Positions 26,770 through 27,907 of a stretch of DNA of 31,512 bases are shown here, in pieces (the first letter of the stretch is position 1; each line of letters opens with the position of its first letter). The stretch lies in IMG/VR virus record IMGVR_UViG_3300028734_000015; one strand, given 5' to 3'. The notes under the pieces are model-generated. The model worked only from the letters and a program-made list of their open reading frames with translations. It was not told the DNA's origin and did no database searches. The translations under genes were made by a program, and so were the position numbers. The stretch comes from an uncultured virus (IMG/VR IMGVR_UViG_3300028734_000015) (lineage: Duplodnaviria > Heunggongvirae > Uroviricota > Caudoviricetes).

Positions 26770-26811
26770 CTTTGATAGTGGTTTTAAGTAAGTATTTATT
26801 GTTTGTTAATT

Positions 26812-26996
26812 GGCTCCCACGACGTTGATCAAACACTATAGGTTGGTTATTCTACCTCCTATATCGGGGAGTGAACTTTACTCTTAGGCTACAAGGCCTA
26901 CATAGTTAGTCACATTGATTGAATTGTTGCATTTTATTGCGTTTATATCAGCCTATTCATTCCGAGCTATTGTAGCTGTCAAATCCAGGCAGGCCC
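26812..26996 (-). ncRNA. ssrA: tmRNA coding piece (5' acceptor strand plus tag reading frame) of a permuted two-piece tmRNA; 3' end approximate
   Basis: Starts GGGCCTG-CCTGGATTTGAC-AGC (tmRNA 5' consensus, no D-stem); tag frame 26931-26884 reads CNNSINVTNYVGLVA*. Confidence 0.85.
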
Positions 26997-27103
26997 GTTT
27001 CATTGTAAATAAGGCGTTTTAAGGGTACTTTTTTTCGTGGATGAATAATGTATCCAATCTTATCTTGTATTAGCTTAAAACGCCTTAAAGTGGACCTGGA
27101 GGG

Positions 27104-27854
27104 CGAAAATATTTTTAATCTATGTAAACATTTCTGCTCCACCTTACGTTATATGATTATATATAATATATTATGGAAAAACAATGTTTATTTTGTAACA
27201 AAACTTTTAATGCAGATCCCAGAGAGCTTAGGAGATGTCATGCCATTTATTGTAGCATTTCATGTTCTATTAAGCATCGAAATCAATTAATACCCCTACG
27301 CAAATGTAAATGTATTGTTTGCTTAAGCGAGTTTGAAAGTAAATCAACTAAAGCTAAATATTGTTGCAAAAAATGCAAAAGTATTCATTATAGGAGATTA
27401 ATTTCAACCGAGGTGAATGGTACTAGAAGAATTCAATCTATATTGTTGACTTTCCCTTGTGCAAATTGCGGCTGGGATTTATCTTCAAGAGACGTTCATC
27501 ATATAGTTCCATCTTGTTTTGGTGGCAAAAATGAATTAACTAATTTAATTACACTTTGTCCTAATTGCCATAGAATGGCTCATAGAAACCTCCTTTTGGA
27601 GGACAAGTTAAATGAACTTGTTTATTTTCGGACTATATCATCATCCGGCATTTCTGCTTAGGATGTTGGGCGCTTATCTGGTTATTAAGGAAATTCTATT
27701 CCTCCAGTAGTCTCTGCACTTTCAAGCGGTATACCGCAAGCTTAGCTCAGGATTGGCATGTAAAAAATGTTCATTTCTGAGCTTTTTTATTTAGCGTTCC
27801 CTGAATTCACCCAATTTTCGATATGTATTACTACATAAAGGACCCCTATAGTTG
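27104..27854 (-). mobile_element. Group I intron (IC3-like core) in the tmRNA T-loop
   Basis: 5' exon ends in U with P1 GACU^C/GGGUC; P AATTCAGGGAA (27807-27797); Q AATCCTGAGC (27754-27745); R GCAGAGACTA (27717-27708); S GATATAGTCC (27639-27630); P3 TTGGGTG/CGCCCAA; terminal omega-G at 27104. Confidence 0.9.
27173..27661 (+). CDS. HNH endonuclease (probable homing endonuclease) with N-terminal Cys-rich repeats, antisense within the intron
   Basis: CANCG...DVHHIVP...GGKNELTNLITLCPNCHRMAH; two CxxC...YCxxxC units; the only credible + strand gene in the - strand block. Confidence 0.9.
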   Translation: MEKQCLFCNKTFNADPRELRRCHAIYCSISCSIKHRNQLIPLRKCKCIVCLSEFESKSTKAKYCCKKCKSIHYRRLISTEVNGTRRIQSILLTFPCANCGWDLSSRDVHHIVPSCFGGKNELTNLITLCPNCHRMAHRNLLLEDKLNELVYFRTISSSGISA

Positions 27855-27907
27855 AGTCGAACCCTCGTCCAAACTACTAGTCTAATGACTTAGCAGCTGA
27901 TATGAGT

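Follow-up and report, generated by a model that had tools for sequence, protein, structure and literature searches.

What is a single plus-strand gene doing in a long run of minus-strand genes, directly opposite an RNA that resembles a self-splicing ribozyme? The question is raised by a 31,512-nucleotide (nt) stretch of DNA from an uncultured member of the Caudoviricetes (IMG/VR record IMGVR_UViG_3300028734_000015), which is referred to here, over its whole length, as the window and is part of a crAss-like phage genome. crAss-like phages are among the most abundant human gut viruses, and the closest named relatives of the window's phage are Suoliviridae genomes from human faeces. From ~6.6 to 31.2 kb of the window, all long non-overlapping open reading frames (ORFs) lie on the minus strand with the exception of one 162-amino acid (aa) ORF at 27173-27661 on the plus strand, and the corresponding endonuclease gene is the sole plus-strand coding sequence among minus-strand neighbours in five RefSeq crAss-like genomes. 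An annotation made from the letters of the window at first pass had described this ORF as an HNH homing endonuclease gene encoded antisense to a group I intron. Our analysis leads us to consider it very probable that the T loop of the phage's permuted transfer-messenger RNA (tmRNA) gene houses a mobile group I intron, in whose P9 region lies an inverted homing endonuclease gene.

A permuted tmRNA gene interrupted by a group I intron

The host gene and the intron occupy the following positions in the window.

27855..27879, minus strand: tmRNA acceptor-piece exon 1, the 5' half of the 3' tRNA-like domain, located by ARAGORN on the strand spliced in silico; T stem GAGGG at 27866-27862, T loop UUCGACU at 27861-27855
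27104..27854, minus strand: group I intron of 751 nt, inserted after T-loop nucleotide 7, with U27855 at position -1 and omega-G27104
27090..27103, minus strand: tmRNA acceptor-piece exon 2, comprising the T stem 3' strand CCCUC, the acceptor 3' strand CAGGUCC and then A
26811..26996, minus strand: tmRNA coding piece (ARAGORN permuted tmRNA), 3' limit provisional; 5' acceptor GGGCCUG at 26996-26990, tag frame at 26940-26884 encoding the tag AIKCNNSINVTNYVGLVA followed by a stop
27611..27864, minus strand: ribozyme core by Rfam, from P1/P2 to P9
27712-27708, minus strand: P7 5' strand
27670-27666, minus strand: P3 3' strand
27665-27661 with 27646-27642, minus strand: P8
27635-27631, minus strand: P7 3' strand
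27621-27615 with 27609-27603, minus strand: P9 hairpin, with compensatory changes in 3 pairs, opposite HNH codons
27602-27598 with 27593-27589, minus strand: P9.1 hairpin, with compensatory changes in 2 pairs, opposite HNH codons
27629-27623, minus strand: closing helix 5' strand, GAAAAUA, directly 3' of the P7 3' strand
27111-27105, minus strand: closing helix 3' strand, UAUUUUC, directly before omega-G27104

Rfam model RF00028 matches the minus strand at 27864..27611 over the full model (positions 1-253), with 75.8 bits against a gathering threshold of 50 and an E-value of 9.2e-18. The last base of the 5' exon, U27855, forms a U.G wobble with G27844 in P1, the helix in which exonic GACU and the C that follows it are paired with GGGUC, and exon 2 begins at C27103. 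Joining 27855 to 27103 in silico gives a permuted tmRNA call by ARAGORN, and this is the only split with a U at -1 and an omega-G that both rebuilds the T arm and yields such a call; the unspliced copy is called by neither ARAGORN nor Rfam. The 5' acceptor strand GGGCCUG lies ~95 nt beyond exon 2 and pairs with CAGGUCC, including a G3:U70 pair, and the T-stem pairs of exon 1 covary among the aligned relatives. That a tmRNA gene hosts the intron, as had been proposed at first pass, is borne out by the ARAGORN call on the spliced strand. Two forms that are catalogued for tmRNA genes, the circularly permuted one and the one with a group I intron in the T loop, are united in the host gene, and standard finders miss such a gene. 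No tmRNA feature is annotated at the site in the intron-bearing RefSeq relatives cr1_1, cr4_1, cr55_1 and cr118_1, and intron-split tmRNA genes of crAss-like phages thus go unannotated.

The anatomy of the ribozyme and its conservation are directly visible in related loci. We drew the structure from the window and scored it on an alignment of 11 loci (A1), in which 94.4% of helix cells form standard pairs, compared with 32-50% when the partners are slid, and in which 17 pairs are altered on both sides, a count that none of 500 shuffles equalled. The U.G pair of P1 is kept in all 11 alignment rows, and the P3-P7 pseudoknot, P4, P8 and P9 are backed by covariation from few independent lineages. 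The presence of P7.1 and P7.1a helices between P7 and the P3 3' strand suggests that the intron belongs to subgroup IA.

A long-range helix closes off the part of the intron that holds the ORF. At least 7 contiguous pairs arise in only 72 of 20,000 random 9-mers of window composition, and a helix of 6-7 base pairs (bp) is found at the same place in 11/11 aligned relatives, in four sequence versions with changes on both sides (GAAAAUA/UAUUUUC, UAAAUA/UAUUUA, UAGAUA/UAUUUA and AGAUUC/GAAUCU); a fifth version, GGGUUU/AAACUC, was recognized by eye in locus L015. A column-wise count recovers only 70% of the pairs of this helix because MAFFT placed a one-base gap in a different register, and the pairs were therefore recounted without reference to the alignment. 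The first-pass annotation had proposed an 8-bp helix here that brings P7 next to the omega-G. Its 7 bp stand and are conserved; the eighth pair, C27630:G27104, would involve the omega-G itself and is without parallel in the relatives.

The P9.1 hairpin (27589-27602, CCUCCAAAAGGAGG, with UUUCU after it) was flagged as terminator-like on the strand of the intron itself. It probably acts only as structure, because termination there would lose exon 2 and the coding piece.

An inverted HNH gene that ends opposite the ribozyme core

The reading frame enclosed by the closing helix is a complete gene.

27173..27661, plus strand: zinc-ribbon and HNH endonuclease gene, 162 aa, ATG start, wholly inside the intron, intact

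Its product matches the Pfam HNH family PF01844 at 41 bits (cut-off 21.4, E 2.2e-10) and PHROG 1271 at E 2.7e-21, and its nearest solved relatives by sequence are the HNH domains of EcoKMcrA (E 7.9e-6) and IscB. A protein search at E <= 1e-5 returned 50 clusters, 47 of which were aligned after three fragments of 95-121 aa had been left out. Residues C96, C99, H109, H110, N124, C129, H133 and H137 are invariant in these 47 sequences and C132 is present in at least 90% of them. All 14 full-length copies are intact, at 162-169 aa, and over residues 1-138 the ratio of nonsynonymous to synonymous divergence (dN/dS) is 0.12-0.30, with synonymous differences (pS) of 0.42-0.72 per site; the protein is under purifying selection. 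An AlphaFold2 (AF2) model with a mean predicted local distance difference test (pLDDT) score of 89.9 places two small zinc-ribbon-like units at the N-terminus and a beta-beta-alpha core behind them (strands 107-110 and 125-128, helix 130-137). In Foldseek, EcoKMcrA, IscB, Cap5 and Gme HNH were returned as matches, all of them weaker than E 1e-3. Judged from sequence, the protein is probably an endonuclease in which two zinc ribbons at the N-terminus precede an HNH domain of McrA type, and it is predicted to act as a nickase.

The gene lies on the strand opposite the intron RNA, as had been claimed at first pass (ORF on the plus strand, Rfam intron match on the minus strand), and its 3' end runs into the complement of the ribozyme. 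The overlap comprises 73 nt, or the last 24 codons (27589-27661), opposite P9.1, P9, the 5' strand of the closing helix, the P7 3' strand, J8/7 and P8. An earlier claim that the last codons overlap elements of P7 and P8 holds in detail: RTISS is encoded by the complement of J8/7 and the P7 3' strand (UAGUC, 27635-27631), and the stop codon TAG at 27659-27661 faces the final base of the P8 5' strand and two loop bases. A T[IV]SS motif occurs within the last 40 residues in 45/47 family clusters, the exceptions being P0040, which has AISS, and P0044, which ends earlier. Since TISS is the complement of the near-invariant J8/7-P7 segment, the whole HNH family appears to sit backwards in this type of ribozyme.

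Selection on the overlapping stretch is visible from both strands. In the tail, synonymous divergence is lower in five of six pairs (pS 0.23-0.54), as expected if the opposite strand is also constrained, and the compensatory changes in P9 and P9.1 indicate that the same stretch is constrained as RNA as well as protein. Model confidence falls in the tail, with a pLDDT of 58 from residue 151 and then 33 over the last twelve residues, which fits a predicted run-on tail whose sequence is dictated by the RNA. The near-invariant motif TISS exists only because its opposite strand is the J8/7-P7 part of the ribozyme core, and so provides a clean natural example of dual coding.

Two further features of the plus strand bear on how the gene might be expressed.

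27105..27172, plus strand: AT-rich spacer of 68 nt between the intron 3' end and the ATG, a candidate promoter or 5' untranslated region (UTR)
27744..27792, plus strand: hairpin AGCUCAGG...CUGAGCU followed by the U-run UUUUUUAUUU, the complement of the P4 3' strand and P5a, ~85-130 nt past the HNH stop

The spacer had been put forward at first pass as an AT-rich promoter region. It is indeed AT-rich, with 20.6% GC, a value so low in just 3.6% of 68-nt windows, but neither a plus-strand sigma-70 site nor the motif TAnnTTTG was found in it. Within the spacer, the block CTCCACCTTACGTTATA (27137-27153), of the form CTCCAC..ACGTTATA, is conserved among the relatives that have the ORF; in the ORF-less locus L017 it is deleted. 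The block occurs a single time in the window, and is therefore not a recurring phage promoter. Read on the minus strand, positions 27137-27142 of the block are GUGGAG, which is complementary to the acceptor 3' end CUCCAC and could form 6 bp with it in relatives; with exon 2 at 27090-27095 of the window only 5 bp form, with no compensating change, and GUGGAG is deleted in L017. This block may serve as a promoter, a 5' UTR or an RNA pairing element. Downstream of the gene, the hairpin and U-run form a possible terminator of the HNH mRNA, in a stretch (27662-27800, plus strand) that folds with z = -2.5, and the ribozyme would fix this sequence in any case.

Related loci, empty alleles and host ssrA

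We examined 33 sources (the window and related sources L001-L032, among which L006-L017 are IMG/VR loci, L004 is cr6_1, L005 is cr128_1 and L018-L032 hold distant HNH relatives only) with a script that submits to ARAGORN every split with -1U and omega-G from which a T stem of 5 bp and a TTCRANN loop result. A T-loop-split permuted tmRNA gene was solved in 15 of the 33 (the window, L001-L003, L006-L014, L016 and L017), and in all 15 the tmRNA is permuted and lies on the strand opposite the HNH ORF, which is reduced to a remnant in L017. Introns after loop nucleotide 7 (751-759 nt) occur in the window, cr118_1 and cr4_1, and one after loop nucleotide 6 (705 nt) in the cr1_1 family. At gathering thresholds, Rfam lists the intron in 7/12 of the IMG/VR loci L006-L017 and has no listed match in L008-L012; L008-L010, which are in A1, align over the whole intron with loci that do match. 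No group I intron at gathering and no split tmRNA was found in L018-L032, which are therefore uninformative on orientation.

Homologous introns at neighbouring positions can be compared directly: ~73-77% identical, they sit one nucleotide apart (27855/27103 in the window; 2872/2166 in L003 and 2654/1948 in L006-L016), so that the last base of the loop has moved from the 5' exon in the window to the 3' exon in the cr1_1 family. In cr6_1 (L004 1930-2739) and cr128_1 (L005 1898-2705), a related ribozyme whose core is 79-82% identical follows T-loop nucleotide 2, as judged by eye, and the intron gene belongs to PHROG 3322 (endonuclease VII-like), again on the opposite strand and with no HNH Pfam match. 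The cr6_1 ORF ends in the P8 loop, with ...GTISSPCVAA before its stop, and that of cr128_1 stops just past P7. In L004, a canonical 7-nt loop would require an omega-A; otherwise the loop has 8 nt.

Both ORF-less and empty alleles were observed. The 333-nt intron of L017 keeps the core and the closing helix and retains only the last 46 codons of the ORF, the upstream block also being gone. In L101 the permuted tmRNA gene is uninterrupted and encodes the tag that is also found in L006, L007 and L016, which have the intron; the spliced L016 sequence is 97.1% identical to L101 over 560 nt, collinear across the junction. The RefSeq genomes cr10_1, cr50_1 and cr60_1 have annotated intron-less tmRNA (SsrA) genes in which T arm and acceptor are almost unchanged, and the intron-less L101, L151 and L152 match the Rfam family tmRNA_permuted (RF04321). 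Outside phages, the same 30-nt T-arm/acceptor pattern is widespread in Bacteroidota genomes, and the ssrA gene of Bacteroides sp. GD17 is identical to the window's exon junction at 33/34 nt. These observations agree with expectations recorded at first pass, namely that the ORF would be patchily present among intron homologs (L017) and that the targets would be intron-less tmRNA alleles of related phages or possibly host ssrA: intron-less alleles with near-identical exon sequence exist in related phages (L101, cr10_1, cr50_1 and cr60_1), and ssrA of the host clade, the Bacteroidota, shares the insertion site (GD17). The HNH protein was not found in the 3 Bacteroidales genomes searched, and a search of 301 genomes of GD17's order gave one match to its family, a weak one that covers the HNH motif only; the family therefore looks phage-borne.

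Competing explanations and known systems

Put together, the reading of the locus as a mobile intron would run as follows. The minus-strand pre-tmRNA would fold into the ribozyme, the 7-bp helix would seal off the ~510-nt insert and set the omega-G beside P7, and self-splicing would rebuild the T arm. A plus-strand transcript of its own would supply the endonuclease, whose reading frame runs into the complement of P9.1, P9, P7, J8/7 and P8 until a stop is met, such that the ribozyme would dictate the tail. The enzyme would then cut intron-less tmRNA alleles of co-infecting relatives, and repair would copy the intron into them.

Several observations weigh against this reading or thin its support. 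Splicing, plus-strand expression, nicking and homing are steps that we infer from sequence. Eight of the 11 A1 rows are near-identical, leaving ~4-5 independent lineages (the window, cr118_1/cr4_1, the cr1_1 family and L015), and the scored structure came from the window itself, which favours the window structure in the slide control. No PDB entry was matched by Foldseek at E <= 0.001, and the best matches cover the HNH domain only. A sigma-70 scan found 7 sites where 5.3 were expected, none of them on the plus strand in 27105-27172; TAnnTTTG, which we take to be the consensus of the Bacteroidota -7 motif, is absent upstream of the gene in the window, L001, L002, L009 and L013 and present in L003 and L015. 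In L004, L005 and L015, the intron and T-arm halves were placed by eye and ARAGORN reports no tmRNA after splicing, even with relaxed rules and long flanks. Finally, loss of the ORF in just 1/15 loci is thin evidence for the loss phase of a homing cycle.

The antisense overlap invites the explanation, raised at first pass, that the two transcripts form a regulatory pair, in which the HNH mRNA would bind the pre-tmRNA, or convergent transcription would interfere, such that endonuclease expression and splicing would be mutually exclusive or separated in time. The 3' part of the mRNA would be complementary to P9-P7-P8 and, on read-through, also to P3-P7.1-P6-P4. This explanation can draw on the 73 nt of coding sequence opposite the core, on the plus-strand hairpin and U-run ~85-130 nt past the stop, which would give a 3' UTR covering most of the core, on the family-wide occurrence of the overlap (45/47 clusters), and on its recurrence with the unrelated nuclease gene of cr6_1. 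The overlap is equally explained, however, by a frame that stays open until its first stop; tail length varies (162, 165 and 169 aa), the cr128_1 ORF terminates just beyond P7, and the tail is predicted to be disordered. We regard such regulation as unlikely. A broader version holds that the backwards orientation, with the 3' end of the gene on the complement of the core, is a selected design: an antisense switch that would time homing against tmRNA maturation, with the shared 34-bp target also exposing host ssrA and the phage's own copy immune. It is suggested by the retention of the arrangement across at least 45 clusters and its recurrence with an unrelated nuclease at another T-loop position, and to us it seems doubtful.

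The match to host ssrA raises the related idea of a weapon, in which the intron would shield its own gene and the nuclease would cut host ssrA and intron-less rivals at the shared T-arm/acceptor sequence, favouring the phage's tmRNA and tag. The 33/34 nt around the insertion site that match GD17 ssrA, the same T arm in many Bacteroidota genomes and the phage-borne look of the HNH family would suit it. The flanks beyond the shared 34 nt differ, HNH homing enzymes recognise long asymmetric sites, and ordinary phage-to-phage homing accounts for everything seen; we consider a weapon quite improbable. That the ORF is a decaying or silent passenger without current endonuclease function would accord with the failure of the scans to find a promoter and with the loss of the ORF in L017. 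Against this stand a dN/dS of 0.12-0.30 with near-saturated synonymous change, the intactness of 14/14 full-length copies, catalytic and zinc residues that are invariant in 47 clusters, and a confident predicted fold, which together make a passenger highly improbable. Collaborative homing, in which a free-standing nuclease lies beside an ORF-less intron, was rejected, since the ORF is intronic and is flanked by the two strands of the closing helix.

A mobile intron of this kind has counterparts, and the window differs from each of them. The founding case of a group I intron in the T loop of tmRNA is said to be that of Clostridium botulinum, described by Williams in 2002. A survey of such genes (PMC11915505) gives 883 intron-form tmRNA genes, 36 of them with LAGLIDADG endonuclease genes, some located after P9; it counts 79 phage sequences and, in its main text, reports no intron >700 bp. 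Like the introns of that survey, the window's group I intron lies in the T loop, has -1 U and omega-G, and would restore the T arm on splicing; going by the survey's figure legend, its positions 8 and 7 are the insertion points after nucleotide 7 (window) and nucleotide 6 (cr1_1 family). At 751 nt the window's intron lies above the 700 bp given there. The survey lists standard, intron and permuted forms separately, whereas the window gene is both permuted and intron-split and not one-piece; its endonuclease genes are LAGLIDADG, that of the window is HNH, and its main text is silent on HNH, orientation and antisense (PMC11915505). Two-piece tmRNA genes (RF04321) and the annotated SsrA genes of cr10_1, cr50_1 and cr60_1 have the same order as the window (acceptor piece, spacer, coding piece), the window copy differing in being interrupted.

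Antisense homing endonuclease genes are documented in the nuclear ribosomal DNA (rDNA) introns Dsq.L2066 of Didymium squamulosum (I-DsqI, in P9.2) and Dir.S956-2 of D. iridis (PMC9548176). As in the window, these genes lie in a P9 extension, opposite the ribozyme strand and in a non-coding RNA host gene, a separate promoter is needed, and antisense interference has been raised (PMC9548176). The Didymium enzymes are of the His-Cys box type and are made from RNA polymerase II transcripts with spliceosomal introns and poly(A), their expression having been demonstrated experimentally, whereas that of the window gene is putative; the account of these introns describes no overlap of the ORF with the catalytic core, unlike the window (PMC9548176). 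Among phages, the capsid intron of mycobacteriophage LittleE, whose splicing was confirmed by reverse transcription PCR and N-terminal sequencing, shares with the window -1 U, a 3' G and an antisense endonuclease ORF (PMC3706429). It differs in its protein-coding host gene (the major capsid gene) and in being called 'most likely group I'; its ORF is named HNH in the figure legend and LAGLIDADG-like in the text, where neither core overlap nor a family survey is reported (PMC3706429).

With respect to the enzyme, the window protein stands closer to the HNH domains of EcoKMcrA and IscB than to I-HmuI, and has weak fold matches to EcoKMcrA (6GHC) and Gme HNH (4H9D). I-HmuI and I-BasI are HNH nicking enzymes of phage group I introns, and their genes, like that of I-PfoP3I, are sense-oriented within their introns. 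I-PfoP3I is, like the window protein, an HNH enzyme encoded inside a phage group I intron, and nicks one strand near the insertion site (PMC3428280). Zinc-ribbon HNH nicking endonucleases of phages share with the window protein the [CxxC]2 HNH core and additional N-terminal zinc ribbons; their genes adjoin cos or terminase genes and are not intron-borne, unlike that of the window (PMC3592412).

In the literature, we found no account of a tmRNA intron from crAss-like phages or of a tmRNA intron that holds an HNH gene, and no antisense intron endonuclease described for tmRNA or crAss-like phages. The case is well supported and family-wide but brings no new principle, antisense endonuclease genes in group I introns being already known. 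It adds to the catalogue of tmRNA introns a gene form that is both permuted and intron-split and an endonuclease gene of HNH type, and it carries the subject of antisense endonuclease genes, hitherto studied in nuclear rDNA introns, over to a prokaryotic virus, a setting that offers simple testing of the expression of such a gene and of interference of its mRNA with splicing.

Some observations on the surroundings remain. The nearest virus record to the window (G001) gives no match to the intron/tmRNA region. RNAs of the types RAGATH-9, RAGATH-22, RAGATH-7-assoc and RAGATH-20 precede the tmRNA genes of relatives by 0.1-1.5 kb, with the RAGATH-7-assoc RNA of L004 ending ~40 nt ahead of the T arm; within the window, no RAGATH RNA was found at Rfam gathering. 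In relatives, a tRNA gene lies within a few tens of bases after the tmRNA coding piece and possibly defines its 3' end through tRNA processing. In the window there is no tRNA call at ~26811-26875, only sequence ending in ...GGGAGCCA.

L002 4542-4703; L003 3555-3755; L004 2777-2898 and 4035-4180; L006-L017; L153 251-352: RAGATH RNAs
L001 2276-2341; L101 925-990; L151 717-782; L152 826-896: tRNA genes after the coding piece

Of 80 viral IMG/VR contigs (L033-L112) retrieved with the T-arm/acceptor motif, 38 gave a permuted and 23 a standard tmRNA in ARAGORN. From these calls, two-piece tmRNA genes seem to be common in uncultured phages well beyond the crAss-like ones.

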